Positions 5,813 through 24,168 of a DNA stretch of 64,000 bases are shown piece by piece. Position numbers and translations under genes: made by a program. Under the pieces are notes generated by a model. That model was given only the letters and a program-made list of their open reading frames with translations. It made no database searches and had not been told where the DNA came from. Numbering within the stretch: the stretch's first letter is position 1; every line of letters starts with the position of its first letter. This DNA comes from an uncultured Spirochaetota bacterium (GTDB taxonomy: Bacteria > Spirochaetota > Spirochaetia > SZUA-6 > CAVTHK01). The DNA is taken from NCBI GenBank assembly GCA_963734495.1, contig CAVTHK010000009.1, forward strand, positions 360,062-424,061. The letters run 5' to 3'.

Positions 5813-7085
5813 ATGACGATCGAAGAGCAGGTGCGGTTCCTGATGCAGGGGACCGAGTACGGCGACGCCGCCCTGGCGGCGAGCATGGAGCGCGAGCTGC
5901 GCGAGCGCCTGGTGGAGGCCGGCCGGGAGGGCCGCCGCCTGCGGGTCTACTGCGGCTTCGACCCGCGCACGACCGACCTGCACATCGGGCACACGGTCCC
6001 CATCCGCAAGCTTCGCCAGTTCCAGGAGCTGGGCCACCACGTCATGTTCGTGGTCGGGACCTTGACTTCGACGATCGGGGACCCTTCGGACCAGGACCGG
6101 CTGCGGGCGACGCTGACCGCGGAGCAGGCGGAGGAGAACGGCCGGACCTACGCGGAGCAGGCGTTCCGCATCCTCGATCCCGTGAAGACCGAGGTGCTCT
6201 TCAACCACGAGTGGCTCGCGGGGCTTCCGTTCGCGGAGCTCATCCGGATGGCGTCGCAGTTCTCGCTCCAGCAGATCCTCGCGCGCGAGACCTTCCGCCG
6301 GCGCTTCGAGTCGGGCGACGCGATCTGGCTGCACGAGACGTTCTACTCCCTCATGCAGGCGCACGACGCGAGCCACCTCGCGGCCGACGTCCAGATCGGC
6401 GGGAGCGACCAGCTCTTCAACATCGTCACCGCGGGCCGCAGGCTGATGGAGGCCCGCGGGCAGAGACCCAACATCGCGGTGATCCTCGGGATCCTCCCGG
6501 GCACGGACGGCAGGACCAAGATGAGCAAGTCCCTCGGCAACCACATCCCGATCCTGGCGCCGGCCGCGGACATGTACGGGAAGGTGATGAGCGTTCCCGA
6601 CGAGGCGATGGCCGCGTACTTCTCGCTCGTGACGCCGCTCGCGCCCGACGAGATCGCGGACGCGATGCGCGGCCACCCGCGGGACGCGAAGATGCGCCTG
6701 GCACGGGAGATCGCGGCCGTGTTCCACGGCGGCGAGGCGGCGGCCGCCGCCGAGCGCGAGTTCGTCGCGGTCTTCCGGGAACGCGAGGCGCCCGGCGACG
6801 CCCCGCGGCACGCGCTCGCCGCCGGCGCCCCGCTGCTGGAGGTGCTGGTGGCCGCGGGGCTCGCGGCGAGCCGCAGCGAGGCGCGGCGGCTGGTCGCGCA
6901 GGGCGCGGTGAGCCTCGACGGCAGGACGCTGGCGGACGCGGCCGAGGCGCGTGGCGGCGGGCGGGCTGCTGCGGGTGGGGCGCCGGCGGTTCGTCCGCCT
7001 GGTGGCCGCGCCCGCGGCGCCGGCCGCGCCCGCCGCTCCGAGCGTGACGCCGCCGCCCGGTTCTGGTAGCATGGAGCGCGCATGA
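5813..7085 (+). CDS. tyrS: Tyrosine--tRNA ligase; frameshift near 6950 in the S4 domain
   Basis: YCGFDP..DLHIGH, GGSDQ, KMSKS; the S4 tail LLRVGRRRFVRLV is in another frame and ends at TGA 7083-85, overlapping the next ATG. Confidence 0.95.
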
Positions 7086-8335
7086 GCACCGCCTTTGCCG
7101 ATCGCATCGCGGGCGTGCCGCGTTCGTTCATCCGCGAGATCCTCAAGGTGGCGGCGGACCGCTCCGTCATCTCCTTCGCCGGCGGCCTGCCGAACCGCGA
7201 CCTCTTCCCGGTCGAGGAGATACGGGCCGCCGCGGACAAGGTCCTCCGCGACGACGGCGCCGACGCCCTGCAGTACGCCACCTCCGAAGGCTACCCTCCG
7301 CTGCGCGAGCTCATCGCCGAGCGCTACGCGAGGCGCGGGGTCGCCGTCGATCCCGCGGACATCCTGATCACCAGCGGCTCCCAGCAGGGGCTCGACCTCC
7401 TCGGCAAGACCCTGCTCAACGAAGGCGACCACCTCGTGATCGAGGAGCCGGGCTATCTCGGCGCGATCCAGGCCTTTGCCGTCTACCGGGCGACGTTTCA
7501 CCCCGTGCCGCTTCGAGGCCACGGCATCGACACCGCCCGCCTCGAGCGCGAGCTGGCGAGCGCTCCGGTCCGCCTCTACTACGCGGTGCCGAACTTCCAG
7601 AACCCTTCGGGGATCACCTACGACGGCGCGACGCGGCGCGCGGTGGCCGACATCCTGCGGCGCACGAGCACCGTTTTCGTGGAGGACGACCCGTACGGCG
7701 AGCTGCGTTTCCGCGGCGAGAGCCAGCCTTCATTCTCCACTCTCCTCGAGGAGCGCTGCGTTCTTCTCGGGAGCTTCTCCAAGATCGTGGCCCCGGCGTT
7801 CCGCATCGGCTGGCTCGTGGCGAAGGGCGAGCTCATGGAGAAGCTCCTGATCGCGAAGCAGGCCTCGGACCTTCACACCAACTCTCTCGGGCAGCGGATC
7901 ATCCATCGCTATCTCCTCGACAACCGCGTCGAGGAGCACATCGCGCGCATCCGGGCCGCCTACGGACGGCAGCGCGACGCGATGGTCGCCGCGATCCGGG
8001 CGACGTTCCCCGCCGGCGTTCGCTGCACCGAGCCCGAAGGCGGCATGTTCCTCTGGGTCACGCTCCCCGAAGGCGCGTCGTCGATGCGCCTCTTCGAGCG
8101 GGCCATCGCGCGCAAGGTGGCGTTCGTCCCGGGGGCGCCCTTCTACGTGGGCCGGGCCGACACCAACACGATGCGGCTGAACTTTTCCAGCGTCGACGAA
8201 AAGACGATAGAAGAAGGGATTGGGCGGCTGGCCGCGGCGCTGCGCGAGGGTCCGCCGGGTACGGCGGACTTGGGACTTCGCGACCCCACGAGTACATGGG
8301 GCAAATGGGACGCGAAGTCATGGGAGACGCGATGA
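7082..8335 (+). CDS. PLP-dependent class I/II aminotransferase (LysN/Aro8-like)
   Basis: ISFAGGLP, NFQNPSG, EDDPY, GSFSK...RIGW, PEGGMFLW. Confidence 0.93.
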   Translation: MSTAFADRIAGVPRSFIREILKVAADRSVISFAGGLPNRDLFPVEEIRAAADKVLRDDGADALQYATSEGYPPLRELIAERYARRGVAVDPADILITSGSQQGLDLLGKTLLNEGDHLVIEEPGYLGAIQAFAVYRATFHPVPLRGHGIDTARLERELASAPVRLYYAVPNFQNPSGITYDGATRRAVADILRRTSTVFVEDDPYGELRFRGESQPSFSTLLEERCVLLGSFSKIVAPAFRIGWLVAKGELMEKLLIAKQASDLHTNSLGQRIIHRYLLDNRVEEHIARIRAAYGRQRDAMVAAIRATFPAGVRCTEPEGGMFLWVTLPEGASSMRLFERAIARKVAFVPGAPFYVGRADTNTMRLNFSSVDEKTIEEGIGRLAAALREGPPGTADLGLRDPTSTWGKWDAKSWETR

Positions 8336-9453
8336 AGGTCGGGACCGTGCGCGAGATCAAGGCGCAGGAGTACCGGGTCGGGCTCATCCCCTCGGCCGTG
8401 CGCTCGTTCGTGAGCCGCGGGCACGCGGTCTTCGTCGAGCGCGGCGCGGGAGAGGCCGCGGGCTTTCCCGACGAGGAGTACGAGGCCGCGGGCGCGCGGG
8501 TGGTCGCGAGCCGCGACAAGATCTACGCCGAGGCGGACATGATCGTGAAGGTCAAGGAGCCGCTCCCCGACGAGCTTCCGCTCCTGCGCCGGGGCCAGAT
8601 CCTCTTTACGTACCTGCACCTCGCCGCCGCCCCCGACGTGGCGCGTGCCCTCGTGGAGCGGGGCGTCACGGGCGTCGCGTACGAAACGATCGAGACGGCG
8701 GACGGCGACCTCCCGTGCCTCAGGCCGATGAGCCAGATCGCCGGACGGCTCGCGGTGCAGGAGGGCGCGAAGTACCTCGAGAAGACTTTCGGCGGCCGAG
8801 GCGTCCTGCTCGGCGGCGTGCCCGGGGTGGCGCGCGGCAGGCTTGGCATCCTCGGAGGCGGCGTCGTGGGCATCAATGCCTGCAAGGTGGCCGTCGGGCT
8901 CGGCGCCGAGGTCACGATCCTCGACGTGAGCGCCAACCGTCTCGCGTACCTGGACGACATCTTCAGCACGCACATCACCACGCTCTACAGCACCGACGAC
9001 AACATCGAGCGCGTCCTCGCCGAGAGCGACCTGGTCATCGGCGCGGTCCTGCTGCACGGCGCGCGCACGCCGCGCCTCATCCGGCGCGAGCACCTCGCCC
9101 TGATGAAGAGAGGCGCGGTGATCGTCGACGTGGCCGTGGACCAGGGCGGGATCGCCGAGACCTCCCGGCCGACCACGCACGAGGACCCGGTCTTCGTGGT
9201 CGGCGGCATCGTGCACTACTGCGTGGCCAACATGCCGGGCGCGGTGGCGCTCTCCTCGACCCAGGCGCTCACCAGCACGACGCTCCCGTACGGGCTCGCG
9301 ATCGCGCAGGAGGGGCTCGAGGCCGCCTGCCGCGGCCTGCCCGCGCTCCGCAAAGGGCTGAACACGTACGACGGCCACTGCGTCTACCCCAGCGTCGCCG
9401 AGGCGTGCGGCCTCGACTACACCCCCGTGGAGCAGGTGCTCGGGGTCAAATGA
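8332..9453 (+). CDS. ald: Alanine dehydrogenase
   Basis: REIKAQEYRVGL, KVKEP, FTYLHLAA, DVAVDQGG, HYCVANMPGAV. Confidence 0.96.
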   Translation: MKVGTVREIKAQEYRVGLIPSAVRSFVSRGHAVFVERGAGEAAGFPDEEYEAAGARVVASRDKIYAEADMIVKVKEPLPDELPLLRRGQILFTYLHLAAAPDVARALVERGVTGVAYETIETADGDLPCLRPMSQIAGRLAVQEGAKYLEKTFGGRGVLLGGVPGVARGRLGILGGGVVGINACKVAVGLGAEVTILDVSANRLAYLDDIFSTHITTLYSTDDNIERVLAESDLVIGAVLLHGARTPRLIRREHLALMKRGAVIVDVAVDQGGIAETSRPTTHEDPVFVVGGIVHYCVANMPGAVALSSTQALTSTTLPYGLAIAQEGLEAACRGLPALRKGLNTYDGHCVYPSVAEACGLDYTPVEQVLGVK

Positions 9454-11834
9454 GCTCGGAAGCTTCCGCGGCGGCGCCCGCGCGGGCGGTGAGCGGCGCG
9501 CGCCTCTCGCGCGCCATGAGCTTCAACATCGCGGGCGGCGTGATGGCGCAGGCCTGGTTCGCCGTCTGCGGGCCCCAGCAGATCTTCAACGTCTTCTTCA
9601 AGAACCACCTGCACGCCTCCGCGTTCACGCTCGGCCTCCTGGTGGCGCTGCTGTCCTTTTCCTCCGCCTTCAGCCTCCTCGCGGTGCTCATGTTCACCAG
9701 GCCCCGCCGGCGCAAGCCCATCTGGATCGCGGCCCACCTCGCCGCCCGCTCGATCGGCTTCGTGCTGGCGGCGGCTTCGCTTCTGGAGATGCGCACCGGC
9801 GACAAGCCTCTCGCGATCCGCGTGATCCTGCTCTCGATGTCCGTGGCGTGGTCGCTCATGAACGCGGCCGGCCCCGGCTGGTGGGCCTGGATCGCCGACC
9901 TGATCCCGGAATCCAAGCGCGCGACGTTCTTCGGCCGCCGCTCGGCGATCATCTTCGCCCTGAACATGTCCTGGATCTTCCTCGTCACCGTCTTCCTCGA
10001 CGGAGCCCGGCGGCCCGCGCTCGCCTACGCGGCCGCGTTCGCGGTCTCGGGCGTGTTCGGGGTCGGAGACATCCTGCTGCACATCTGGATTCCCGACCCG
10101 GCGCGGCTCGGCCCCCGGCCCGGCGCGCCGGGAGGGCCCGCGCCCGACAGGCCCGCCCGCATGTCGCTCGCCGTCTTCTTCGAGCCGCTGCGCAGCCCGC
10201 AGTTCGTGCGCTTCTCCCTGGCGGTGGGCCTCGCGATGCTGTCGATCAACGTGCTCGCCCCGTTCATCCCGCCGTACATCACGGACCCCGCGACGGTCGG
10301 GGCGCCCTACACCTGGCTGGGCATCATGACCGTCATCTCGCAGCTCGCGTGGGTCGGCTCCGTGCGGACGTGGGGCGTCCTCATGGACCGGTTCGGCCGC
10401 AAGCCCGTGGTGGCCCTCTGCAGCCTCTTCCCCATCGCCTGGTTCGCGTACCTGGCCGTGGGCCCGCGCACGTACGTCGTGCTGCTGCCTCTGATCTCGC
10501 TCGCCGGCGGCGTGCTCGCCCCCGGCTTCTACGAGGGGGTCAACCAGCTCATGCTGAGCCTGACCCCCAACGAGAACCGCACGACGTACGTGGCGTGGTA
10601 CGTTGCGATCATCGGCGTCATAGGCGCGCTCGGCTCGCTGCTCGGAGGCGCGCTCGCGTCCAACACGGTGATGCTCGACCCGCTGCCCGGTGAGCCGTTC
10701 CACGCGGTCGTGGTGGTGGCCGAGGTGCTCACGGTCCTGAGCTTCCTCGTGCTCACCCGCATCGACGAGGGGCGGAAGACTTCGACCTTCGACATCGTCA
10801 CGCGCCTCGCGACGCCGAACGTGGTGCGCAACCTCGTGAACATGAGCATCATCGGAGGCGCCGAGGAGGCGGGGCGGGCGGCGCGGGCGCTGCGCACCGT
10901 CGAGGGGGCGGAGAGCGACGTCGCCATCGACGACATCGTCGGGCGGCTCTCGGACCCCGACCGGGAGGTGCGCGAGGAGGCGGCGCGCGCCCTCGGCCGC
11001 ATCGGCAGCGGGGAGTCTTTCGACGCCCTGGTCGCGCAGCTGCGCGACGGGGAGTCCTCGATCAGGCCGGAGGCGGCGCACGCCCTCGGCCATGTCGGCG
11101 ACCCGCGCGCGGTCACCTGGCTCCTGCAGGCGCTTCAGGATCCGTCGGTGGAGCTGCAGGAGGCGGCCGCCGAAGCGCTCGGCGACCTGGGCAGCCGCGA
11201 GTCGGCGCAGACGCTGCTCGCGATGCTCCGCGGCAACCAGGCCACGGAACGGGTCAAGGCGCAGGGCGCCGAGGCGCTGTCGCAGCTCGGCGCGGTGGAG
11301 GCCGTCTGGGAGATCGTCCCCCTGCTGCACCGCACGTCCAACGCGGTGCTCAGACGGCAGCTCGCCATCGCGCTCGCCAACCTCTTCGGCCGCACGGGAG
11401 AGTTCTACCGTTACGTGACGGGGGAATCCGCGCGCGCCGAGGCGCGCGGCGAGCGCCTCGCGGGCGAGGCCGAGCGGTCACTCCGCCGGCTGGTGCGCGA
11501 CGTCTCGCCGGACGCGAAGTCGCAGATCCTGCGGCGCTTCGCGGAAGCGCGCGAGGCCTTCGACGCGGGAGACAGCCTGCGGGCCCTCGGCTGCGTCCGC
11601 GACCTGCTGTTCGTGCTCGCGCTGTTCCGGCACGAGATCGCGCCTCCGGCGGGCGAGGGTGCTGCCGCCTGGGCGGTCGGGCGCGATCAGCGCCTGGCCG
11701 TCGCGCTCTGGGTGCTCGGCGAGGCGCTCGCGGCGCAGGGCAGCGCCGTGCAGAAGATCGACGCGCTGCTCGCGTTCTACCTGCTGAGGTACCTCCCGGG
11801 GCCGGCCCGCGCTCAGAGCCGGCCGCAGGCGTGA
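9450..11834 (+). CDS. MFS transporter fused to a C-terminal HEAT-repeat domain
   Basis: About 12 hydrophobic segments with MFS motif GVLMDRFGRKP, then repeats LSDPDREVREEAARALGRIG / LQDPSVELQEAAAEALGDLG. Confidence 0.85.
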   Translation: MSSEASAAAPARAVSGARLSRAMSFNIAGGVMAQAWFAVCGPQQIFNVFFKNHLHASAFTLGLLVALLSFSSAFSLLAVLMFTRPRRRKPIWIAAHLAARSIGFVLAAASLLEMRTGDKPLAIRVILLSMSVAWSLMNAAGPGWWAWIADLIPESKRATFFGRRSAIIFALNMSWIFLVTVFLDGARRPALAYAAAFAVSGVFGVGDILLHIWIPDPARLGPRPGAPGGPAPDRPARMSLAVFFEPLRSPQFVRFSLAVGLAMLSINVLAPFIPPYITDPATVGAPYTWLGIMTVISQLAWVGSVRTWGVLMDRFGRKPVVALCSLFPIAWFAYLAVGPRTYVVLLPLISLAGGVLAPGFYEGVNQLMLSLTPNENRTTYVAWYVAIIGVIGALGSLLGGALASNTVMLDPLPGEPFHAVVVVAEVLTVLSFLVLTRIDEGRKTSTFDIVTRLATPNVVRNLVNMSIIGGAEEAGRAARALRTVEGAESDVAIDDIVGRLSDPDREVREEAARALGRIGSGESFDALVAQLRDGESSIRPEAAHALGHVGDPRAVTWLLQALQDPSVELQEAAAEALGDLGSRESAQTLLAMLRGNQATERVKAQGAEALSQLGAVEAVWEIVPLLHRTSNAVLRRQLAIALANLFGRTGEFYRYVTGESARAEARGERLAGEAERSLRRLVRDVSPDAKSQILRRFAEAREAFDAGDSLRALGCVRDLLFVLALFRHEIAPPAGEGAAAWAVGRDQRLAVALWVLGEALAAQGSAVQKIDALLAFYLLRYLPGPARAQSRPQA

Positions 11835-11909
11835 GCGGGCGCAGCCGCGGGCGGGCGCCGGGAGCGGGCGGGCAGCTTCGCGCGGGGCTCCGTGACGGGG
11901 GCGCAGGTC

Positions 11910-13395
11910 TCAGGTGACCAGCGTCAGGGCGGCGAGCCCGACGAACACGACGGCGAGAGCGAGCTTCACGGTCCCGATGTGCGCCTGCGCGGCCCGCGTG
12001 AGCGTCCGCGAGCTCACGCCGCGCCAGGCGAGGACGAACACGACGGCAAGCGGCAGCACGAAGGCCACGTTGTAGATCGCGAGCAGCAGGTAGGCGGCGA
12101 GCCCGCCTTCGGTGCGCACCAGCCAGGCCACTGCGGGGAAGTAGACCTGGCCCGTGCAGGCCAGCTCGAACAGCGACACCACGGCGCCGAGGACGAGCGA
12201 GCCCCCGACGATCGCGCCCGAGCGCGCGTTGTCGAGGATCGTGCGCTGCATCCTGCGCTTGATCGGCTCGGGCAGTCGCAGCGCCATCTCGGCCGCGCGG
12301 CCGCTGCGCGCGAGCGCGAAGTCGCGCAGGCTCAGGGCCGCGAGCGCGAGCAGCACGGCGACCAGTACCCACCGCAGGGCGACCGCGACTCTCGGGAACG
12401 ACGCCGCGGCGCGCAGCGAATGGAACAGGCCGAGGCCCACGGCAAAGTACGCGGCGAAGACGGCAAAGGTGAAGGCCGACCCCGCGAGCAGGATCTCCGC
12501 GCGGCGGCGGCCCGCGAGCACGAGCGAGGTGAGCAGGAAGATGATGGTCGTAAAGGCGCACGGGTTCACGCCGTCGACCAGGCCCGCGGCGAACAGCGCC
12601 GCCGGCGCGAGCCGCCGCGCGATCCCCGGCAGCCGGGGCAGGGGCGGGGGCGACGGCGCCCGCCGCCGCGCCGCCGCGCGCGGCCAGCGCCGCCTCCATC
12701 CCGCTTTCGATCTCCGCCTCGCCCGAGAGCACGCGGCCGCCGACGATTGCGGCGGGCAGGGCCGGCGGGCCGGACGAGCCCGCCGCGGCCGAGAGCTCCT
12801 CGAAGACCGCGGGCTCCAGCACGTTCCTGCGGGCGATGGCGACCGGCCCGCCGGGCCGGCCCGAGAGGCGCGCCTCGAGCCGCGCGATCATCCGCTCGCA
12901 GCTGCGGCATCCCGGGGCGTAGTAGAGGAGGACCGCGCCGCCCGCCCCGGCGTCGGAGAGGCCGGCGTTGGGCGAAGGCGGGGCGGCCGGGGCGGGCTGC
13001 GGGCTCGCAGGCGGGTTCACCATGCCCGTGACCCGGTAGAGCCAGCTCGTCCCGCCGCCCGGCGCGGGCGAGGACGGCGCCGAGCGCACCACGAAGTAGA
13101 CGTCGACCTTGCCGGGCTCTTCGGGCGTGTAGCGAAGCTCGACCGCCTCCTCGGCCCCGGCCGCGAGCTCGAAGCGCGACGGGACCGCCTCCAGGCAGCC
13201 GCAGGTGCTCACGAGCGAGACGGCGATCGTCGTGCTCTCCGGGTTGGCCGCCCTGATGATGCGCGTGACCATGCCGCCGATCTCGATCCGGCCGAGGTTC
13301 CAGTCGGCCGGCGTGAGCGTCGCCTGGGCCGCGGACGGCCGGGCCGCGAGCAGGGCGAGAGCCGCGGCTGCGATCGTTACGACGGGGGAGCGCAT
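11910..13395 (-). CDS. Secreted Ig-like + thioredoxin-like (CxxC) + CcdA/DsbD-type membrane domain fusion; frameshift near 12620
   Basis: Signal peptide, STCGC Ig-like (DUF1573-like) domain, YYAPGCRSC, then membrane domain DGVNPCAF...ELACTGQVY. Confidence 0.75.
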
Positions 13396-13401
13396 GAGGC
13401 T

Positions 13402-14013
13402 TCAGTTCAGCGAGGGCTTGAAGCCGGTCTCGGCCACGATCTTGTGGATGCCGCCCAGCTCGCCGAGCGCCTCTTTCCATCCTTCCTCGGGGTTGGGGTG
13501 GAAGATGTGCTTGGCCGCCGCGGGCCGCACCACCCAGGAGTTGCGCTCGAGCTCCGACTCGAGCTGGCCCGGCGCCCATCCCGAGTAGCCGGCGTAGAGC
13601 CGTATCGGAGGACGGGAGCGCTCCTCGAGAGCGGACCACGTGTCCACGAGGAAGCCGGTCAGCGAAGAGACCAGCGGCTCGAAGAGCACGTTCTCCACGG
13701 GCGCGGAGGCATGCGGGCTGCGCACGTCCTCGGGCAGTCCCGAGTGCAGGCAGAAGAGGAACTGCGGCTGGACCGGGCCGCCGTAGAACAGAGGCACGCT
13801 CGCGGCCGCCGTCGAGGCGAGATCGGGCACGGCTTCGCCGAGAGTCACGGGCAGCTTCCGGTTGACCACGAGCCCGAAGGCGCCGTCGGCGTTGTGATTG
13901 ATGATCAGCACCACGGTCCTGTGGAAGTTGGGGTCCGCCAGATCAGCTTCGGAGATCAGGAAGTGGCCTTCGAGCCACCTCGGGCTTTTGTCGCCCGCTT
14001 CCTTGCGAGCCAT
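13402..14013 (-). CDS. YqgE/AlgH family protein
   Basis: DPNFHRTVVLI, GAFGLVVN, GGPV, GYSGWAPGQLESEL. Confidence 0.93.
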   Translation of the reverse strand: MARKEAGDKSPRWLEGHFLISEADLADPNFHRTVVLIINHNADGAFGLVVNRKLPVTLGEAVPDLASTAAASVPLFYGGPVQPQFLFCLHSGLPEDVRSPHASAPVENVLFEPLVSSLTGFLVDTWSALEERSRPPIRLYAGYSGWAPGQLESELERNSWVVRPAAAKHIFHPNPEEGWKEALGELGGIHKIVAETGFKPSLN

Positions 14014-14198
14014 GGGTCCAGTGTATTGAGGCCGCGAACGAGGGGCAAGCGGGGCGGCCGCGAACGGGCTCGGGGTCGCGTGCCTCGGGGTTCCGTCCTC
14101 GGCGCCGCCTTTCGCCGACCGCGATCGGCTTCGCACGCCCCGCCTCGGACTCTCAGACTGCGGCCGTTCACCTGGGTGAGACCGGGCACAGCCACCAC

Positions 14199-15797
14199 TC
14201 ACAACACATCATCCTTGCCGCGGAACGCCTTTCTTGCGAAGCCCAAGAGGCGGCCGATTATCCCCTTCTTCCGATACAGAGCCGCGTAGTACGCCAGCCT
14301 GTTGGCTTCCTCCGCTCTACGGCCGGCCTCGATCTGTTGCGGTGACCATTTGAGCGACCACACGACCGCTCCTCGACGAATGAGGTAGTGTGACTTGCAC
14401 GCCAGCTGCCAGTTGCCTATGGACGGCCGCACTGTAGGCCCCTCAACCGTTTCCTCAATAGACCATTCTGTCGGCCCCATAGGCGTCTTGACCTTGCATC
14501 CGCATCCGCAGGGACAAAGATGCATGGCGATGTCGAACTCCTCGGCGACGTACAGTACCCTGGGTTCGAGCACCGCCGGCATGTATTGGACGCGCTGCAA
14601 ACGGAATCTGATCGGATCTTGAGGGGAGCCGACGGTCCTCATGTCGCCGATGTCGAACAGGACGTTGAAATACGGGACCTCCTCCAGGTAGAACCCGCGT
14701 GCCTGCTTGAACCTCATCACCGCTAGGCAAGCGTTGAGCGCGTTGAGCTCGCTGATTTGAATATTGCTTCGATATAGGTCGTCTGGGCTGTCGGAGAGCT
14801 CCGCGAGTTTCATGTCTCTCACGTTTCGACCGTCCGGCGATGAATAGTATGTGGTCCGCAACATACCAGCGAGAGCCGCGCCCTGGCGCCTCAGACCCAT
14901 TCCGACGTCTACAAAGGGTATTCCCTGCGAAAGCAGCAAGTCGAACACGGCGGCCCTCGAGGAGCCCTTGTCCACGCACACGAACGCGAACGTTACACCT
15001 GCGACATCCTCAGCGGAGGAGGCATCGATCAACCGCGGCACAGCAATCAACCCGTTTCGGAAGTTGTCGTAGCGACGTCGGTAGACCTCCGCCTTCGGTT
15101 TGCCAAGTTCCCTTGCATCAAGCCTTCCGGGCGAGCGAAAGGCGTTGTGAACGTGATAGGCATCCAGATCGAATACGCGTATTTCTCGCACCGGCGTCTT
15201 CACGAGGAAGTCCAGAACATAAGAGCCCGTACCGCCGAGTCCGATCACTGCGATCACGTCGTCTTTGAAGAGCGCCGACAGATCCGATATTCCTGCTCTG
15301 CTGGTGAGAGTGTCCTGGAACTTGAACACGGAATCCGCTGCATGGTCGCCGAACGCTCGGTACGTGTAGGGAGTCGCGGCATACCGTTCCATCGCTGGGC
15401 CACAGATGATTGCGACGTAGCTTTCTATCTTCTCAAAGAAGTCCGCGAACTTCCCTTCGGTCCTCGGCTTGTTGGAGAACGATCTCTGGACCACAACGTC
15501 GGCGCTTGCGCCGCTCATGGGAAGTTGAGTGGCACCGCCCCCGAGGTTCGGGATGGGCTTGCCGTCGAGGCCGAAGGGAACCGATCCCGCGAAGTAAACT
15601 TGATGGTCGTCCTGGGCAACGTGCACTTGGTCTACGAAAACGAGTTTCGCGACAAGCGCCCCGGTCTGCAGCTCGCCCTTTTCGTTCAGGTACGGGATGT
15701 CACGAACGACAAGGTATCCGGCGTCGATCGACACCGCATACCCCTTCTCCACCATGCGCCTAATGTCATCGTTATGACTGACCAGTCGCTGAAACAC
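14199..15797 (-). CDS. ThiF/E1-like adenylyltransferase fused to an N-terminal DUF6791-like (E2-like) domain and a C-terminal DUF6527-like domain
   Basis: GTG start at 15797 (MFQRLVSHNDDIRR); LVVRDIPY, DHQVYFAG, FSNKP; E1 motifs VIGLGGTGS, DLD...HNAFRSPG, FVCVD, DVGMG; C-domain HLCPCGCG...PSIGNW..CKSHY. Confidence 0.85.
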   Translation of the reverse strand: MFQRLVSHNDDIRRMVEKGYAVSIDAGYLVVRDIPYLNEKGELQTGALVAKLVFVDQVHVAQDDHQVYFAGSVPFGLDGKPIPNLGGGATQLPMSGASADVVVQRSFSNKPRTEGKFADFFEKIESYVAIICGPAMERYAATPYTYRAFGDHAADSVFKFQDTLTSRAGISDLSALFKDDVIAVIGLGGTGSYVLDFLVKTPVREIRVFDLDAYHVHNAFRSPGRLDARELGKPKAEVYRRRYDNFRNGLIAVPRLIDASSAEDVAGVTFAFVCVDKGSSRAAVFDLLLSQGIPFVDVGMGLRRQGAALAGMLRTTYYSSPDGRNVRDMKLAELSDSPDDLYRSNIQISELNALNACLAVMRFKQARGFYLEEVPYFNVLFDIGDMRTVGSPQDPIRFRLQRVQYMPAVLEPRVLYVAEEFDIAMHLCPCGCGCKVKTPMGPTEWSIEETVEGPTVRPSIGNWQLACKSHYLIRRGAVVWSLKWSPQQIEAGRRAEEANRLAYYAALYRKKGIIGRLLGFARKAFRGKDDVL

Positions 15798-16029
15798 TGA
15801 ACACCATTCCATCCTTGACCCTGACCGATCCATCCGGAGGGAGGATCCCTTCAGGCCTGTGCCCATGGCCCTTTTTGTACTTCACTGAGTAGGTGATCTC
15901 GGGGTGTTGCGCGTAGTCTGGCACGTCAAGGGTCAGTACCTCGGCGTAGGTGATTTCGCCCTTCGTCCACTCGTGCGGAGTCCCATTGACGATGATCGTT
16001 ATTGCTTTGATCACATGAACCATTTGCAT
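15772..16029 (-). CDS. Ubiquitin-like (multi-ubiquitin family) protein, single domain
   Basis: ITIIVNG...ITYAEVL...YSVKY...EGIL..DGSVRVKDGMVFSVSATGQS is typical of this beta-grasp family; strong purine-rich RBS; overlaps the E1 gene start. Confidence 0.85.
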   Translation of the reverse strand: MQMVHVIKAITIIVNGTPHEWTKGEITYAEVLTLDVPDYAQHPEITYSVKYKKGHGHRPEGILPPDGSVRVKDGMVFSVSATGQS

Positions 16030-16048
16030 TCCCCCTTCTCTCGTAGCG

Positions 16049-16291
16049 CTACCGCTTGTCTCGCGGCGGAAACGGGTCGTTGCCTGGGGCTACGGTGTTC
16101 TTGTCCCTGAACCGACCGTCACGCCCCTGGATGGTGAGCTCGCCTCCGCCGGCGGTCTTCAGATTCTCGCGAGCGGCTCGAATAGCCGCACCCTGCGTCG
16201 GGTAGATGCGCTCGGCCCTCTCCGCGCCCACGCGTGCGTTCGCCCATCCCGTTCCCGACTTGTACACCAGTCGATCCTGCGGTTTGCTCAT
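16049..16291 (-). CDS. DUF2188-like small protein
   Basis: W...GAERA...TQ.AAI.AAR...GGGELTIQGRDGRFRDKNT...GNDPFPPR; GGAGG RBS. Confidence 0.85.
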   Translation of the reverse strand: MSKPQDRLVYKSGTGWANARVGAERAERIYPTQGAAIRAARENLKTAGGGELTIQGRDGRFRDKNTVAPGNDPFPPRDKR

Positions 16292-16338
16292 CCCGCCTCC
16301 TTTCAGGCCGTTGCCTGCGGAATCTCCAGCATGGGACC

Positions 16339-16367
16339 AATATATAGCTGTTAGGTAATAGAGTCAA
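16339..16367 (-). promoter_or_regulatory. Sigma70-type promoter for the DUF2188-Ubl-E1 operon
   Basis: Minus strand TTGACT-17 nt-TATATT. Confidence 0.7.
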
Positions 16368-16386
16368 GAAACAAATCGTTTACTAT

Positions 16387-16428
16387 TTGTATTTCTCTAT
16401 TGCACAATACAAGCTGGTGTAGTACGTT
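16387..16428 (+). promoter_or_regulatory. Divergent promoter for Xre-ImmA with an overlapping inverted repeat (candidate operator)
   Basis: TTGCAC(16400-05)-17 nt-TACGTT; inverted repeat TTGTATT(16387-93)-N12-AATACAA(16406-12). Confidence 0.55.
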
Positions 16429-16471
16429 ATATCCATAGAGCGCAAGAATCATTCAGGGAGGGAGAGCACCA

Positions 16472-17604
16472 ATGGCCGCAACCGACATTGGCAATAACAC
16501 TCGGCGCCATATGAAGATACGTGGCTTTACTGTCCCTGCGTTGGCGAAGAAGTCTGGCATCGGCACCGCGACTCTGTCGAACATCCTGAACGGCAAATCG
16601 GAACCCAAGTCCTCTACCCTCATCGGTATAGCAGCGGCACTTAGTGTGCCCGTCGTGGAGCTGGTCGCCGACTCGCCTGTCCTCAAGTCACTTCGCTTCA
16701 GAACTGCGAAGACTCTGAGCGGTAGGGAGAAAGCGGAACGAGAACAACTCAAGCATGACACCGCGCTATGGTTGGCCAACTACAGCTTCCTGAGAGGCAA
16801 TTGGGCGTGTATCAGGAATTCCGCCTCGGTGAAATCGGCGGAAAGGACCCAGAGCAGGCGGCAATCTCCGTCAGGCAAGCGCTGGACGTTCGGTCACCGG
16901 CAATTGCTGATCTCCCGCAACTAATGGAACAAGCCGGCATCAAACTGAGAATCCGGAGGTTTGGCTTCAGGAAGACCTTCGGCATATCGGTGGGCGAGAA
17001 CGATGGCGGACCCGCAATCGTGGTGAACTCGGAGCAAGGGATTCCGGTCGAACGGCAGCTGTTCAGCGTCGCGCATGAGCTCGGCCACCTTGTTCTTCAC
17101 AAGAGCTCTTACGACCAGAGCAAGGTCGATGAGAACGATGAAGAAGAGCGTGCAGCGAACCTCTTTGCGGGCCAGTTCTTGATACCCGACGAAGGCCTAG
17201 ACAAATCGTGGGAGGATTCCAGAGGACTCCACTGGGTGGACAGCGTCCTGGTCATAAAGAAGCATTTCAAAGTGAGCTACATGACCGTGCTCGTACGGCT
17301 CGCCCAGCGCTTGGCGAGGCCGGACCTTGACCTGGGAACCCTGATCGCTCGATTCAGAATGGAATATGCGGATCGCCACGGCCATCAGCTGAAGGGCCAC
17401 TACGAACCGGATCCCATTACCGGTCCAGTCGCGGATGATGATCCCAGACACCTCGACGAGACCGATTTCGTAGAGGACCGGTTTGCCAGGCTCGTGCGGC
17501 AGGCGTTCGAGAAGGAGATCATTTCAATTGGACGAGCCGGCGAAATGCTGGGACACTCACTCGAAGAGATGCGCGCCTTGGCAAGGGCTTGGCAGGAGGT
17601 ATAG
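16472..17604 (+). CDS. Xre-family HTH fused to an ImmA/IrrE Zn metallopeptidase; frameshift near 16792
   Basis: HTH LAKKSGIGTATLSNILNGKSEP; LRFRT linker; RQLFSVAHELGHLVLH (HEXXH); EERAANLFAGQFLIP; ISIGRAGEML tail. Confidence 0.9.
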
Positions 17605-17609
17605 CTGCT

Positions 17610-17712
17610 TTGTCTGCCATCGCGCGAAAGGCGGCGATATGCGACGCAAATGTGCTCATCGATTTCGTCAAGGCGGACGAAGGTATCTTGGCGATGCTCG
17701 CCGGCTATTCCG
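17610..17712 (+). CDS. PIN-like domain protein, N-terminal fragment truncated at the segment junction
   Basis: GGAGGT RBS, TTG start, AICDANVLIDF matches the PIN first-strand D-x-N motif; PIN genes commonly follow Xre-ImmA genes. Confidence 0.65.
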
Positions 17713-18751
17713 AGATACTACCATCTACCTGGGTAAATTGGCCGCCTGCAACTAAGTTGTTGCCATTCAACGCCAAAGACAGGACCACTCCATTTGTGCC
17801 GCCCATACTTGACCAGGAAACGCCATCCCAACGGGCAATATAGCTGTCAGGGTTCGTAAAAGAGCCACCTGCAAATACCTCTGTGCCACTGACCGCCAGG
17901 GCAAGGACGACTTCGCTGCCGCCGATACCCAACCCACCCCCCAATGCAGACCAGGAAGATCCGGTCCATTTGGCTATGTTCTGCGCGAACACGCTGCCGG
18001 CATGATCAAACGTACCGGCAACAAAAAGATTACCACTGCCGTCCATGGCAAGCGCCTGTACCACGCCGACGAATTTTCCACTGCTTGACAGGCCTGGAGT
18101 ACCGCCAACCAATGACCAGGTTTGGGCAACCAAATCCCAGCGGCCCAGGCTCCAGGCACTCTGACCATTCAGATCGTTGAAGCTGCCGCCGACATAAACC
18201 GACGTTCCACTGACCAGGATGGCGTAAACTTGCCCAAGGGCACCGCCTCCGAGGGCATACCACAGATGGGTAATCATGCTCCAGCGAGCGATATTATTTG
18301 CGGCGACACCGCCAGCCTGGCTGAACGATCCGCCGACATAAATATCGCTGCCACTCACTGCCATGGCATAAACCTGGCTGGCAGCCCCACCATTGGTCAC
18401 GCCATTGAGAAATCGTTTATCCCAATATTGATCCCCGACCTGCTGAGGCGCCAGCGGAGCGGTAAGCATGGCGTCGGGGGAAGGTTCAAAACGCGGACTA
18501 CCATCCGCGCCTGTATGCATCAACCAACCGCTGGCGTTAAAACTTCCTTGGGTGCCCATTTTTAATGAACCATCCGGGTTTAGTACGCCTGCAATAGTCG
18601 TTACAGGTGTTGCGGGGTTTCCATTTTGCCAATTTGCTGAGCTTTTTTGGAAAAGAAAAGATTGGACGGGATTGCCTGAAACAGGCTGGGTTAATGAAAA
18701 AAATAAGCTAATTACCATAACAATATTGAAGCGGAGGGTAGGATTCTTCAT
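17705..18751 (-). CDS. Secreted repeat/beta-propeller-like protein, C-terminally truncated at the junction
   Basis: Signal peptide; repeats of V.A.AVSG..(I/V)YVGGSF..AG.V.A.NIA(R/K)W...W.ALGGG. Confidence 0.75.
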   Translation of the reverse strand: MKNPTLRFNIVMVISLFFSLTQPVSGNPVQSFLFQKSSANWQNGNPATPVTTIAGVLNPDGSLKMGTQGSFNASGWLMHTGADGSPRFEPSPDAMLTAPLAPQQVGDQYWDKRFLNGVTNGGAASQVYAMAVSGSDIYVGGSFSQAGGVAANNIARWSMITHLWYALGGGALGQVYAILVSGTSVYVGGSFNDLNGQSAWSLGRWDLVAQTWSLVGGTPGLSSSGKFVGVVQALAMDGSGNLFVAGTFDHAGSVFAQNIAKWTGSSWSALGGGLGIGGSEVVLALAVSGTEVFAGGSFTNPDSYIARWDGVSWSSMGGTNGVVLSLALNGNNLVAGGQFTQVDGSISE

Positions 18752-18854
18752 GTGTGATTCCCCTTTGGCAAAGATATCGATGCATGCAATATTACTATTT
18801 TAAACATAAAAAATATCAATTTTATTCCATTTTTCTCCAATTGATTTTAAATAA

Positions 18855-18906
18855 AAACCTTGTCCAGAATGACTTCTAAAAATAATGCCATCCCTGGACA
18901 AGGTTT
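18855..18906 (-). terminator. Probable intrinsic terminator
   Basis: 13-bp inverted repeat AAACCTTGTCCAG/CTGGACAAGGTTT with a T-rich tail on the minus strand. Confidence 0.55.
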
Positions 18907-19005
18907 GTCGTAACCAGTCATATGAAATCTTTAAGTGATCGGTTTTAGCCGCTGTTGATCTCTTAAAAGATCATTTCACCAGATAATTGTATTTTGGGAA
19001 GACGA

Positions 19006-19464
19006 TTAAAAATTCTCGAGTAATTCCAAAACCAAGTTCAATTTTTGGCTGGCGTCCATATAGGTATACATTCCACCGGTGTACTGACCTTGCTGGACCA
19101 TGGGAATGCCTTTCGACTCCAGAACCTGAACCACTTTGCCGGTATCTTTTATCTGGAAAGCAATATGGTGAAATCCATCCCCATGATTGATCAACGCTTC
19201 TTTCCAGGTACTTGGCTCGCCAATCGGTTCAATCAGCTCCAGATCTACCTGACCGAGGTGAAAAAATGCCAGTTTTGCGCGGGCATAACTGGGTTGTCCG
19301 CAGGTACTCGGTCTTGGCGGCCTCATATTCATCTGTAATGATGACTTCGGGTCGCGGTAGTCCGAATACTTCGCAGTAGGCATCGATCGATTTTTCGATA
19401 TCTTTTACAACCAGGCCAATCTGGGTCACGATGTTTGTCCCAATCCTATCGGCTGTTCAGACAT
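19006..19464 (-). CDS. VOC/glyoxalase (methylmalonyl-CoA epimerase-like) protein, frameshifted
   Basis: TQIGLVVKDIE, LELIEP...GDGFHHIAF, LELLE across frames. Confidence 0.8.
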
Positions 19465-19493
19465 AGCTAAATCTCCTTTATTCTTACATGATC

Positions 19494-19543
19494 TTGGTGT
19501 GTTTTTTTTGTTTTTGCTTCGCAAAAACAAAAAAACACACCAA
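19494..19543. repeat. Long inverted repeat/hairpin
   Basis: TTGGTGTG-T8-G-T5-GC ttc GC-A5-C-A7-CACACCAA. Confidence 0.8.
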
Positions 19544-19593
19544 TTCGTTTTGCGTGGCCTACGTAAGTGCGGACGGCTTTTCTTGTTTTCCGA

Positions 19594-20187
19594 TCAATCG
19601 CGATTTACCCAACGGTCCAGGTTTTCAGGAAAATCATAGCTGCACAGGCGCTCTAAAAGTGATTCCGCGTTCTGGTCATGGATGAATAACATTTTATGTT
19701 CGGCGTAGATAAAGCCTTCTTCATGCGCGCGTTGAATCATCGCCAGGAGGGGATCGAAGTAATTGCGCACATTCAGCAGGCCCACCGGTTTGTGGTGAAG
19801 GCCAATTTGGGCCCAGGTCAAGCGTCTCAAATAATTCGTCGAATGTGCCATATCCTCCCGGCAGGGCGATAAATGCATCCGCCATGGCAGACATGCGCGC
19901 CTTACGGATCTGGATATCCGGTACGATTTCCAGCGAGGTCAATCCCGCATGGATCAGCTGAGGTGTATTGAGGTTTTCAGAGACAATTCCGATCACCTGA
20001 CCACCTGACTCCAGGACACCATCGGCGAGGGCGCCCATTAAGCCTGTTTTTCCCGCTCCGTAGACCAGATTGAATACCGGCATGGGCAAGCAAGGCGCCC
20101 ATTTCATAGGCGGCCTTATGATAATCCGGGTGAAGATGGTCGGCTGAACCACAGTACACGCAGATCGATATGAATAGATGTGCTCAT
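19594..20187 (-). CDS. LOG family (TIGR00730-like) nucleotide phosphoribohydrolase, frameshifted
   Basis: ICVYCGS, LVYGAG..GLMGA, RKARM...DAFIALPGGYGTFDEL. Confidence 0.88.
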
Positions 20188-20189
20188 CC

Positions 20190-20722
20190 TTATTTATAAA
20201 GCTCCGGATTTTTAAAAGGTACCAATGCCAGAATTACCGCCATTTCATAAAACTGCGCGCGATCGACGACGTCGCCGGTCAGGAGGCCAATCGCACCGTT
20301 TTCCTGTTTGGAGTTCGAGCGGTTGAAAACGATATCATCCGCCGCACCGAGCTCATGCCCTCGACGCACCAATTGGGCGACCCGGGGGGAAGAAAAAATG
20401 TCCCGGTTCGTCCTTTGCCAATCTGGTCTTCTGGATTGGATCACTACCCAGGCGAACGCTGCCAGTTCAGCCTGGCTTTCTTCAATGCCACCTTCGATCC
20501 CGACCCAGAAATCTGCATCTGGTACGGCTCGAGCTGCATTTGAGGCCCGGTTGCCGGCGCCGAGCAGGGTTTCATCGGAAGAGAAAGGCTGGTCCGGTAC
20601 TTCAGATGGAACACTGATCAGTCTGGATTTGAAAGCTGTTCGACCGGATACATGCGCTGGAAACCAGCAAGCGCGGCCTGAGATTTGACTGGATTACGGG
20701 AGGCGATAACAATTTTCTTCAT
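20190..20722 (-). CDS. yjjX: Inosine/xanthosine triphosphatase (YjjX/DUF84), frameshifted
   Basis: MKKIVIASRNPVK start, GIEGG, NSKQENGAIGLLT...R..FY..AVILALVPF. Confidence 0.8.
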
Positions 20723-22014
20723 GCAAGCCAATTATATCTGGATTCGTCTGGATCAAGGCTTCCAGGTAATGGGATTTCATCTGGCGAGAAGCCATGACTT
20801 GCTTGATGGGGGGCAGGCGCAGGATAACCCCCAGGATAGCCGCCATGGCGCGGTGATTCCACATGGCGTGCTGATCGAAAATCAGGTTCTGCAGATCGCC
20901 GCGTTCGACTGCCATGACAACTACCCGGTGGACAGAGTTGAGCGGAGTAAGCACTCTTTCAGGTCGTGGATTTCAAACTGATGCCGTGCGATGGACAGCT
21001 GCGTACACAAACACCGCATCCCAGGCACATTTCTTCATCAAGTTTGGCTTTTTTCCGGTTGGGATGGTGGGCATCATTGGCCGAGACCAGGGTCATCGCT
21101 TCGACCGGGCAGGCAGCCGCGCATTTTCCACAGCCATTGCAATCCGCATCGGAAATTTGCGGGATGAAATTGGTGGTATGGACCGGATGGAGAAGCCCAA
21201 AACGGCGTTGGGCGATCATCGCTTCACAGCAGCAACCGCAGCAGTTACAAATAAAATTGACACCCTGGCGGACATTTTCACCAAACTGCACCAGATTATT
21301 CTCAATTGCTTGCTGCAGCAAATCCAGGCCTTCCTGGATATCGACTGCGCGGGCAAATCCGTGCCGGATTAACGAATCGGCACTGCCATTAAAGGTCATG
21401 CAGATGTCCATCGGCGCTTTGCAGGCGCGGTCCATATGTTCCATTTTGTGGCGGCAGTAGCAGACACCAATGCCGCGATGAGTGGCGGAGCGAATCACTT
21501 CGCTGGATCGCTCATAATCTAACACATGCAGACTGTTCTCGGGAGTGAGCACCTGTTCGTTCACGAAGGTCCGGCCGAGTTGTGTTTCGCCGTTGGTGAA
21601 CAGGCTGCGGATAAAATCCTCTTCAACATTCATATATTGATAGAACAGCTCCCCCAATACTTTCTGATCGATATCACCGCGCAGCCGCATCATGGAAAAT
21701 TCAAAGAAACCTGCCATGGGCGGGGGAAGGGTATAAGAGATCTCGCCGTTTTGTTCGGCGTCCACCAGGATCGCCCGGCTGGCAAGCCCATCCAGCACAT
21801 TCTGGGCTGCTAACAAATCAACCTGCCAGATCCTGGCTGCCTCGCGCGCGGTGAAGGGTTTGATCGGCAGCAGCGCCACCAGGCGAGCTTCCTTCTCGCT
21901 AAAGAGAATCTGTAAGATCTTATACAGGGTTTCCGATGGAGGAGCTCCCTGCGGAAAACGGTTCAGGCGGTCGATCAAAGCGGCATAACCGGATTTCATT
22001 ACCTCGTGAGCCAT
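20694..22014 (-). CDS. 4Fe-4S dicluster domain protein; frameshift near 20958
   Basis: CYCRH, CNCCGCCC, CNGCGKC..ACP, CLGCGVC.RSCP; C-terminus continues in ORF 20694-20954. Confidence 0.85.
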
Positions 22015-22055
22015 ACAATATTCTCCAATGTAGGGGATTTAATGAAAATAGCAAT

Positions 22056-22752
22056 TCATGACCTCAGTGAATAATCCACTGCTGCCAGAGCATGAACGCG
22101 GGTGGTGTCAAAAACAGGCACCGGAGAGTCAGCCGGGCCGATTAACATGCCTATTTCTGTGCAACCTAAAATAATCCCTTGCGCGCCTTGATCCACCAGT
22201 TTCTGGATGATGTCGATGTAGACCTGGCGAGATTGAGGTCGGATGATTCCCTGGACCAATTCGTCATAAATCACCCGGTGGATAATCACGCGGTCCTCCG
22301 CAGGTGGAGTGAGGACGGATAAACCATATACATCACGCAGACGTCCCCTGGTAAAAATCCTGTTCCATGGTAAATCGAGTGCCCAACAAACCGATCTTCG
22401 TCAGACCTTGGGCGCAGATCATCTGAGCCGTGGCATCGGCAATATGTAAAAATGGCAGGGCGACTTCCTGCTGGATCGTGTCAGCAACGATGTGCATGGT
22501 ATTTGTGCATAAAACGAGGCATTCAGCGCCTGCCCGTTGGCATTGCCGTCCGGCTGCGACCATCACCTTGCCGGCTTCTTGCCAACGATCTTCATGCTGC
22601 AGGGTCTCAATTTCGCTAAAATCGACGGATACCAGCACGCATTTTGCTGAATGGAAGCCCCCCAATCGCCGGTGGACTTCCTCGTTGATCAGTCGGTAAT
22701 ACTCAACCGTGGATTCCCAGCTCATTCCGCCAATCAGGCCAATCGTTTTCAT
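22056..22752 (-). CDS. Aspartate/glutamate racemase family protein, frameshifted
   Basis: IGLIGGMSWEST, CTNTMH, LGCTEI, FDTT.VHA. Confidence 0.92.
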
Positions 22753-23385
22753 CCATCACTCCTTTCAACAGGTTTTTTCTCCAGGGGAGAAATAATGAAC
22801 CGGCAGGCTGTTACCGGTGAATTCCGGATCAATGTGCTGGGTTGAATGCTGGCGTTCAAATTTGACTCAAGGATCGACGCGTCCATCGCACACAGTTCGG
22901 GATGGATTTGTATGATTTGACCATAAGGGCAATTGCGAAAGACTACTTGCGGCCCTTCGGCGTGAGCCTCCCAACGAGCCTGGTATTTTCTGGCCGATAA
23001 TTCTTTCACCAAACGGTTCAGGCGCGCCGTGAGCGAGGATGCGCCCGGCTGGATGAAGAGAATATGCCGACCGAGATCAACGAGTTCTTTCTATCGAAAG
23101 CGCGGATCCCGACGCCTCATTGACGAACAAGCGCAGCATCGCATCTGCCAGCAGGGCCAGATTTTCAGGTTTTTCTTGGGTGGCAAGTGCGTAATAGGTT
23201 CTTGGCCTGCCGCGGTCGTGTTTATTTTTAGGGACACTCACGGGTGTGATCACCCCAGCCAGCTCCATCCGTTTCAGATGGTATTGGATATTGGCGCGCG
23301 TGGTGGAAAGAAGCTGGCTCAGCTCTTCGGCGCTGGTATAAGGATGATTTTCGAGGTAATCCAGAATTTCCTGGCGGGTGTTCAT
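22749..23385 (-). CDS. wHTH transcriptional regulator with a Cys-containing C-domain (SufR-like), frameshifted
   Basis: ILDYL...AEELS...ANIQYHLKRME...GRP; NCPY...HPELC...C. Confidence 0.7.
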
Positions 23386-23512
23386 TTAACTATTATATTC
23401 CGTAAGGCAGATTTAGCAAGGAAAAATTTGCTAAAAGCGAACTTGACACCTGGTGGAGCGGTGCTACAATTGGATCAACCCTACCGATCTAGACAAGAAA
23501 GGCGGTGCGACT

Positions 23513-24168
23513 GTGACCCCAGATGATTTGAACCTGCCAGGGGTTGATGTATCCCCAGAATTACGTCAACAAGTAACCCTCACCACACTGGACCGGATCT
23601 ATAACTGGAGCCGGCGAAATTCTGTCTGGCCGATGATGTTCGGCCTGGCCTGCTGCGCGATCGAAATGATCTGCACGGCTGCCAGCCGCTATGATTTTTC
23701 TCGGTTTGGCATGGAAGTGATGCGACCCAGCCCGCGCCAGGCAGATGTGATGATCGTCTCTGGCACGGTGACCAAAGAAGATGATGCCGCAAATTGTGCG
23801 GCTTGTACAACCAGATGCGCGAGCCAAAATATGTGGTGGCGATGGGCGCCTGCGCTTCAGGCGGTGGACCATTTAAAGAAGGATATAACGTGGTTTCCGG
23901 GGTGGATAAATATATCCCGGTGGATGTTTATATACCGGGCTGCCCACCTACCCCCCAGTCGTTGCTCAACGGTTTGATTACCTTACAAAAGAAAATCGAC
24001 ACAGAAACGATTAAAAAGGTACGCTGGTATCAAAAGGGACCTACTGGCGGATATTCCGGTTCCCGTATTAGGTCCCGATTTGATGGACCCAGCCAAATAT
24101 GCCTTGATCAAGCAGGCTTCGGCAGCGAAAACCGAAGCTGTCATGACGATGAGACCGGAAAGGAATAG
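23513..24168 (+). CDS. nuoB: NADH-quinone oxidoreductase subunit B, frameshifted
   Basis: [35 protein letters not shown]. Confidence 0.93.

Follow-up and report, generated by a model that had tools for sequence, protein, structure and literature searches.

A probable Type II Bub operon in which the E2-E1 ligase and the DUF6527 peptidase share one reading frame

Is the gene at positions 14199-15797 of a 64,000-nucleotide stretch from an uncultured Spirochaetota bacterium (GenBank assembly GCA_963734495.1, contig CAVTHK010000009.1, positions 360,062 to 424,061; hereafter the window) truly one gene for what related operons divide between two? As far as the accessible text of the two preprints describing them goes, Type II Bub (6E.2) operons encode BubA, a ubiquitin-like protein (Ubl), BubBD, an E2-E1 fusion, and BubE, a DUF6527 protein (10.1101/2024.11.21.623953; companion 10.1101/2024.11.21.623966), the Type II example being that of E. 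coli ZDHYS365 (Ye, Gong, Chambers, Corbett; 10.1101/2024.11.21.623953). An initial reading of the window, made from the sequence alone, had proposed that an E2-like, an E1 and a DUF6527-like domain are joined here in a single polypeptide. We find that the locus is very probably a Type II Bub operon (6E/DUF6527), in which a DUF2188 gene and bubA are followed by one gene, here termed bubBDE, encoding BubB, BubD and BubE.

The minus-strand frame is free of stops from 15866 down to the stop codon at 14199-14201, a span of 555 codons, and residues are numbered throughout on this longest frame. Codon 24 is the GTG at 15797; starting there coincides with the beginning of the relatives' called products (alignment A1) and gives a protein of 532 aa, an ATG at 15812 being a possible alternative. 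Pfam matches to DUF6791, ThiF and DUF6527 fall in this single frame, as the sequence-only reading had it, and its parts are as follows.

14199..15797, minus strand: bubBDE, a single open reading frame (ORF) for the E2-like domain, E1 and BubE
15309..15770, minus strand: E2-like domain (Pfam DUF6791, aa 33-186, E 1.2e-41), holding H88, S131 (codon 15474-15476) and K133
14628..15299, minus strand: E1 adenylation domain of ThiF fold (aa ~190-413; Pfam ThiF aa 204-323, E 3e-12)
14613..14627, minus strand: fusion junction SPQDP (aa 414-418), in place of the last codons and stop of bubBD
14343..14612, minus strand: BubE core (aa 419-508; Pfam DUF6527, PF20137, aa 446-503, E 2.5e-21)
14202..14342, minus strand: helical C-terminal extension of the BubE part (aa 509-555), with many hydrophobic and basic residues

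The junction reads ...GDMRTVG-SPQDP-IRFRLQRVQYMP..., and the codon immediately after it (I419) occupies the position of the start Met in split bubE genes. Within the E1 domain lie the GLGGTG motif (209-214), R244 and the crossover-loop Y365 (codon 14772-14774), and the BubE core holds four zinc cysteines (C451, C453, C455 and C490) together with S482 (codon 14421-14423) and H493 (codon 14388-14390). The short motifs were located as FSNKP at 130-134, HLCPCGCGC at 449-457, PSIGNW at 481-486 and CKSHY at 490-494. The C-terminal extension, modelled as helices at 486-510 and 512-525 in the 532-residue numbering, matches the extension described for free BubE, which its authors suggest may touch membranes (10.1101/2024.11.21.623953).

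The catalytic positions are strongly conserved among relatives. Over 143 rows of aligned BubBD, H88 is found in 143, S131 in 141, K133 in 128, R244 in 143 and Y365 in 141; in the BubE alignment the four cysteines are present in 86-87 of 86-87 rows, S482 in 86/86 and H493 in 87/87. The serine of FSNKP, picked out beforehand as conserved-looking, is therefore the family E2 serine, and the serine of PSIG and the histidine of SHY that had been marked for mutation are the invariant DUF6527 pair. The absence of CxxC pairs from E1 also holds, there being none in the E1 part of the translation and no conserved Cys in the E2 domain or the crossover loop across the 143 rows. As a separate observation, one library representative (P0213), alone among the 143 rows, has a Cys at the position of S131 and a Met for K133, and on these residues may be a thioester-using or an inactive variant.

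These residues are those on which Bub chemistry is reported to depend. Bub systems are described as lacking catalytic cysteines, the Ubl being carried in oxyester form, on a tyrosine of the E1 crossover loop (Ubl~Tyr) and on a serine of E2 (Ubl~Ser), a chemistry demonstrated for the Citrobacter and E. coli systems only (10.1101/2024.11.21.623953). BubE is a zinc-binding Ser/His peptidase that strips BubA conjugates and acts as a negative regulator: it cut a BubA-GFP fusion, its expression in cells removed conjugates, and S-to-A and H-to-A mutants restored them (10.1101/2024.11.21.623953). The window shares with Type II Bub the order of Ubl gene, E2-E1 fusion and DUF6527, the Ser/Lys/His of E2, the adenylation Arg, the crossover-loop Tyr and the C4 zinc site and Ser/His pair of BubE, as well as an adjoining regulator of CapH/CapP type with a helix-turn-helix (HTH) and an M78 domain. 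Counted from the GTG start, the E2 serine, adenylation arginine and loop tyrosine become S108, R221 and Y342, close to S106, R219 and Y342 of E. coli. Moreover, the BubBD part is ~70% identical to proteins of ~397 aa that have the same two domains, and no JAB/JAMM family occurs among the Pfam matches of the six ORFs from 13402 to 17604, as in Type II Bub. The differences are that BubE here forms the C-terminal third of BubBD instead of a separate gene, that the operon is led by a DUF2188 gene and that BubA is a single beta-grasp of 85 aa ending in TGQS, unlike the 222-aa E. coli BubA chain ending in TDKS.

Two other systems come close. Type I BubCD, a JAB/JAMM-E1 protein (PDB 9ea4, 9ea5, 9ea8, 9eae, 9eav), likewise has an E1 fold without a catalytic Cys and a peptidase fused to E1, and it is the best structural match: the top Foldseek matches of our model are Citrobacter BubCD chains (E 5e-13), the fold also matching ThiF/MoeB. 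However, according to the accessible preprint text the Type I peptidase is a metallo JAB at the N-terminus, E2 is fused to the Ubl (BubAB) and BubE is separate, whereas the peptidase of the window is a Ser/His DUF6527 at the C-terminus, the Ubl is a separate 85-aa ORF and E2 is fused to E1. Type II Cap2/Cap3 of the cyclic oligonucleotide-based antiphage signalling system (CBASS) has the same E2-E1 order and a peptidase that reverses conjugation; on the side of differences, Cap2 uses cysteine thioesters and Cap3 is a JAB, and no cyclase, effector or JAB gene was seen beside the operon.

What, then, is new at this locus? The proposal of serine oxyester intermediates was right in kind, oxyesters being published for split Bub, but it overlooked the tyrosine that carries the E1 intermediate, here Y365 (141/143), and was therefore partly mis-assigned. 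Similarly, the suggestion of a Ser/His Ubl-processing protease agrees with the published peptidase activity, but what BubE has been shown to do is remove conjugates and not primarily process precursors. Oxyester chemistry and Ser/His peptidase activity are thus already published for split Bub, and there is no new chemistry here; the new element is a maintained, recurrent fusion of BubBD and BubE. The terms BubBDE and DUF6791 were not found in the searchable literature, and the passages of the two Bub preprints (main text, as distinct from supplements) that contain 'fused' or 'fusion' describe no BubBD-BubE fusion. Table S1 of Ye et al. comprises 544 operons and may already include fused cases (10.1101/2024.11.21.623953).

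A single frame could be produced by an assembly or sequencing error, an indel masking a stop codon and a separate bubE start. Some circumstances are of the kind that such an error would leave: the neighbouring regulator has a frame break in the same assembly, there is a probable mis-join 3′ of bubBDE, and the junction is without read cover, the best of the public read runs containing at most 0.09 of the sampled words and the four that were mapped giving zero cover over 14208-14712 and across the step in guanine-cytosine (GC) content. However, the identical in-frame junction is found on other contigs, in P0001-P0007, which are cluster representatives of 74-90% identity and 530-532 aa where complete, and in the N-truncated P0121; the cluster members derive from JGI, Logan, ENA and NCBI records, among which the window's own product is present as a 518-aa call. 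A search of the BubE part against longer proteins returned 8 matches, all from the window clade and including P0121. Metagenomic loci L084 and L085 share the junction, each in a stop-to-stop frame of 559 codons, and P0003, on a different contig, ends in the same residues as the window, so that bubBDE itself is unaffected by the probable mis-join. In a tree built on the BubBD columns, the 10 fused-clade rows (P0008 included) form one side of a branch with a Shimodaira-Hasegawa-like approximate likelihood ratio test (SH-aLRT) value of 99. Moreover, an ATG is absent at the former start, and comparison of the window, L084 and L085, at dS 0.4-1.0, gives a ratio of non-synonymous to synonymous divergence (dN/dS) of 0.10-0.13 in the BubE core, against 0.13-0.15 in BubBD, indicating that the fused BubE part is under purifying selection. 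The fused domain is also the sole DUF6527 match in the window's genome. We regard an artefact as extremely unlikely, and on these sequence comparisons the three-domain single frame is confirmed as real.

How widespread is the fusion? A survey of species representatives (one genome per species, 185,579 species) yielded 531 stretches with a relative, and in the best 80 of these bubBD and bubE were separate frames in 80/80, with bubE directly after bubBD in all. DUF6527 is therefore normally a separate downstream gene, as it is in all of these 80 loci and as the initial reading had stated. Of the 120 nearest protein clusters, seven have the triple-domain form (P0001-P0007), P0008 is frame-broken and 112 are BubBD proteins of ~397 aa at ~70% identity; with 0/80 loci and 7/120 clusters, the fused-versus-split count that the sequence-only reading had called for shows that fusion is not the common form. 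Among metagenomes, 29 loci were fetched, 26 of which had both parts, two fused (L084, L085) and 24 split. At the level of 50%-identity representatives, two of the best 150 matches span the three domains, namely the 543-aa P0132 at 36% identity and the 490-aa P0139 at 34%, both confirmed by Pfam, and the 120 clusters nearest P0132 contain four triple fusions (P0132, P0282, P0286 and P0385). P0283, in this neighbourhood at 68% identity, is split.

On the tree the fused label requires 3 changes, of which the well-supported branches force 2, with P0132 and P0139 lying outside the supported clades. Separate origins would account for the window clade, for P0132/P0282 and for P0139, and probably also for P0286 and P0385. 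Judged from these sequences, the BubBD-BubE fusion is rare yet recurrent, and not unique.

The arrangement of the split genes suggests how a fusion might arise. Relative to bubBD, the bubE frame of the 80 split loci is +1 in 56, +2 in 20 and the same in 4; an 11-nt overlap of the type ...DEN(stop) / MKI... occurs in 40/80, and a Met stands at the position of the window's I419 in 48/80. The fused clade reads VGS-xx-DP-[I/V/K]-R... at this point and has no ATG there. We propose that a frame shift in the last bubBD codons abolished the stop and that the start Met of bubE was lost afterwards; a frame change near the end of bubBD together with start-codon loss would explain a junction without an ATG. 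The median length of free BubE is 134 aa, from which it follows that the whole of BubE, its helical hydrophobic extension included, was fused.

These same features invite a more modest account, in which the fusion is a nearly neutral accident, eased by overlapping stop and start codons, and the product acts like the split, translationally coupled pair. The split genes, with an 11-nt overlap in 40/80 loci, are coupled before any fusion, which may thus leave the stoichiometry almost as it was; moreover, fused forms are few and scattered (7/120, 2/150, 4/120), and free BubE, at ~134 aa, is equal in extent to the fused part. Set against this, the fused state has been kept over dS 0.4-1.0 with dN/dS near 0.1, the start Met has been lost and the fusion arose more than once. 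We consider this account possible but doubtful, and since a neutral fusion would persist too, it bears on the significance of the fused gene and not on its identity as bubBDE of a Type II Bub operon.

How might the fused enzyme work? The E1 domain would adenylate the BubA C-terminus via R244 and the GLGGTG nucleotide site, and the Ubl would move as an oxyester to Y365 on the flexible crossover loop, then to S131 of E2, aided by K133 and H88, and finally to a target amine. The fused BubE, with its zinc site (C451/C453/C455/C490) and its S482/H493 dyad, would grip the BubA tail and cleave BubA-target or BubA-X bonds. Ligase and peptidase would be produced in a 1:1 ratio and joined through a short linker of low model confidence, and the hydrophobic C-terminal extension of BubE would now be part of the whole enzyme.

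Structure prediction bears on the peptidase step. The AlphaFold2 (AF2) model of the fused protein has a mean predicted local distance difference test score (pLDDT) of 83.9 and a predicted template modelling score (pTM) of 0.58; the crossover loop, including Y365, falls below a pLDDT of 50 and the linker blocks lie at 61-73. The complex with the Ubl, whose modelling had been suggested with the initial reading, was predicted for the BubE part and BubA with an interaction prediction score from aligned errors (ipSAE) of 0.86 against 0.00 for the best control. In calibration the ipSAE mark was reached by 58/80 solved complexes and 2/110 mismatched pairs, counts that are only roughly valid here because the prediction was made with its own alignments. 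Three runs shared at least 97% of contacts, with partner pLDDT of at least 87, and BubA residues 78-85 contact residues 64-70 and 76 of the BubE part (ORF 481-487 and H493). The model supports binding of the BubA tail in the S482/H493 site, and repeats the contact that the authors predicted for split Bub systems in the preprint text accessible to us.

A tail held at this site need not be there for cleavage, and the published authors themselves raised Ubl transfer as a reading of the Ser/His pair beside the BubA C-terminus (10.1101/2024.11.21.623953). DUF6527 would then be an E3-like transfer station, its Ser482 receiving the Ubl that had passed from the E1 Tyr to the E2 Ser and handing it to the target, with the fusion joining three successive carriers; fusions often unite successive pathway steps, and the predicted position of the BubA tail would suit this role. 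However, published BubE cleaves BubA-GFP and removes conjugates, the S-to-A and H-to-A changes restore conjugates, and E. coli BubBD with BubA made conjugates without BubE (10.1101/2024.11.21.623953), which makes a transfer station improbable. A broader idea, which we rate as unlikely, is that BubE is a fixed ligase subunit acting on enzyme-bound Ubl, by proof-reading or recycling slow oxyesters or as a third, E3-like serine carrier, so that Bub would be a relay of three active sites; it is suggested by the repeated fusion and by the position of bubE directly after bubBD in 80/80 split loci, mostly with overlapping stop and start. Cleavage of BubA conjugates by the fused BubE is the reading we retain.

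Kept under selection and formed more than once, the fusion is a Rosetta-stone hint of physical contact between peptidase and ligase, a contact not tested in the accessible published text on these only recently characterised systems. The fused protein could also be of practical use as a reagent. Free BubE is reported to have aggregated, with very weak activity and no structure obtained (10.1101/2024.11.21.623953); in the fused form, where BubE sits on a soluble ligase, such problems might be smaller.

The BubA tail itself is encoded where bubA meets the ligase gene.

15772..16029, minus strand: bubA, an 85-aa single-domain Ubl (Multi_ubiq PF14452, E 4.9e-17) ending ...TGQS

The 3′ end of bubA overlaps the start of bubBDE by 26 nt (counting the stop codon and assuming the GTG start), and a profile of the window's BubA subfamily recognises the multi-ubiquitin protein 9cd2 of E. 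coli ZDHYS365 (E 2.4e-14). The ORF upstream of the ligase gene ends in TGQS in 71/81 loci, and one ending in TGQS, TGES or TSQS was found in 77/80 split loci; the invariance of this ending in alignment A3 is true by selection, its rows having been picked by that ending. The last bubA codons overlap the bubBD(E) start at a constant offset in loci L001-L080 and in the window, and BubA of E. coli ZDHYS365, as given in its PDB chain, finishes with TDKS and has no glycine there. We had considered that BubE must trim QS after G83 of BubA; this claim was dropped because the E. coli Type II chain lacks that glycine and because conservation of the QS codons may stem from the overlapping bubBDE start. 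As to the C-terminal residue adenylated in Type II BubA, Ser and a trimmed Gly are both conceivable.

The remaining elements of the operon lie upstream of bubA.

16049..16291, minus strand: DUF2188 gene (PADLOC PDC-S16 candidate), which leads the operon
16339..16367, minus strand: putative sigma-70-like promoter TTGACT-17-TATATT, upstream of the DUF2188 gene (pattern match)
16371..16390, no strand assigned: 9-nt inverted repeat adjoining the -35 hexamer (pattern match)
16472..17604, plus strand: divergent HTH and Peptidase_M78 regulator, in two overlapping frames (16472-16924 and 16768-17604)

A DUF2188 gene upstream of bubA on the same strand was found in 13/80 split loci (L004, L005, L009, L014, L031, L032, L038, L053, L062, L065, L072, L077 and L078) and in the fused locus L084, a gene order suggesting that DUF2188 recurs as an accessory gene in this Bub subfamily; it is unmentioned in the published Bub text that was searched. 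The search for promoters found 1 site where 0.8 were expected, and it is position alone that speaks for the promoter; the inverted repeat is possibly an operator, which we infer from its place beside the -35 hexamer. PADLOC gave weak partial E1-E2 matches to the ligase gene (aa ~176-271, around the nucleotide-binding motif; best E 4.3e-7) and none to the Ubl gene. The regulator ORFs (HTH_3 and Peptidase_M78) match capH and capP, RmrA models matching more strongly. In L084 the module consists of a divergent single HTH-M78 gene of 375 aa followed by DUF2188, bubA and bubBDE, and the window's regulator shares 84% identity with this gene over codons 1-108 in one frame and 77% over codons 108-375 in a second; it is therefore frame-broken or mis-sequenced near 16790. 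If the break is real, control of the operon would be altered.

To which organism does the operon belong? It lies exactly at a GC step, from ~0.70 to 0.54 at the bubBDE stop codon (window 14000-14200). Contig C9 has ~69% GC over 374 kb, falling to ~54% in the terminal 50 kb between the bubBDE stop and the contig end. A genome of the same genus matches window 1-13977 at 77-81% identity and then runs directly into sequence like that at G000:C3:56227, and it contains no sequence collinear with window 17700-37000. Contig C3 has ~43% GC over its initial ~52 kb, which carry tRNA-Thr/Tyr/Gly/Thr, EF-Tu, tRNA-Trp, NusG, L11, L1 and RpoC, while the genome has high-GC EF-Tu, NusG, L11 and L1 genes of its own on C16. 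From the same-genus collinearity, the core genes at the C3 head and the high-GC copies on C16, the low-GC DNA is probably from other organisms and was joined on at this locus. An inserted island, also considered, is opposed at the matching C3 head by the core genes of a second organism, but may hold for the C9 tail. No tRNA gene was found in the window. A 47-bp inverted match of 96% identity links window 14064-14109 with G000:C3:56049-56095, at both high-GC edges of the break; the matching segments could be arms of a hairpin or repeat belonging to the real intergenic region, and may have led to the break in the assembly.

A number of points weigh against our reading of the locus and are taken together here. 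Comparison of contigs indicates that the operon probably sits at an assembly mis-join, with the C9 tail and the C3 head both mis-joined, and the host of the Bub operon is therefore uncertain and may not be the 69% GC organism. The regulator gene of the operon has a broken frame in this assembly, and within the fused clade the frame of P0008 (447 aa) is interrupted in DUF6527, through either decay of the peptidase part or sequencing error. The sequence match of the E1 part to BubCD is weak (E 0.003), and S131, R244 and Y365 are taken as counterparts of E. coli S106, R219 and Y342 from conservation and spacing rather than from a direct alignment to the E. coli protein. All the chemical steps set out above are carried over from distantly related E. 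coli and Citrobacter homologues, and at a pTM of 0.58 the placement of BubE relative to E1 and E2 is not confidently predicted. Any benefit of the fusion is something we purely infer, and none of the Bub operons tested in E. coli gave phage protection (10.1101/2024.11.21.623953).

Lastly, at 53717-57159 on the minus strand of the window an nSTAND1 nucleoside triphosphatase ORF (55663-57159) overlaps a 13-repeat WD40 ORF (53717-55777) by ~115 nt, and these could be a single STAND-type sensor gene or two paired genes.

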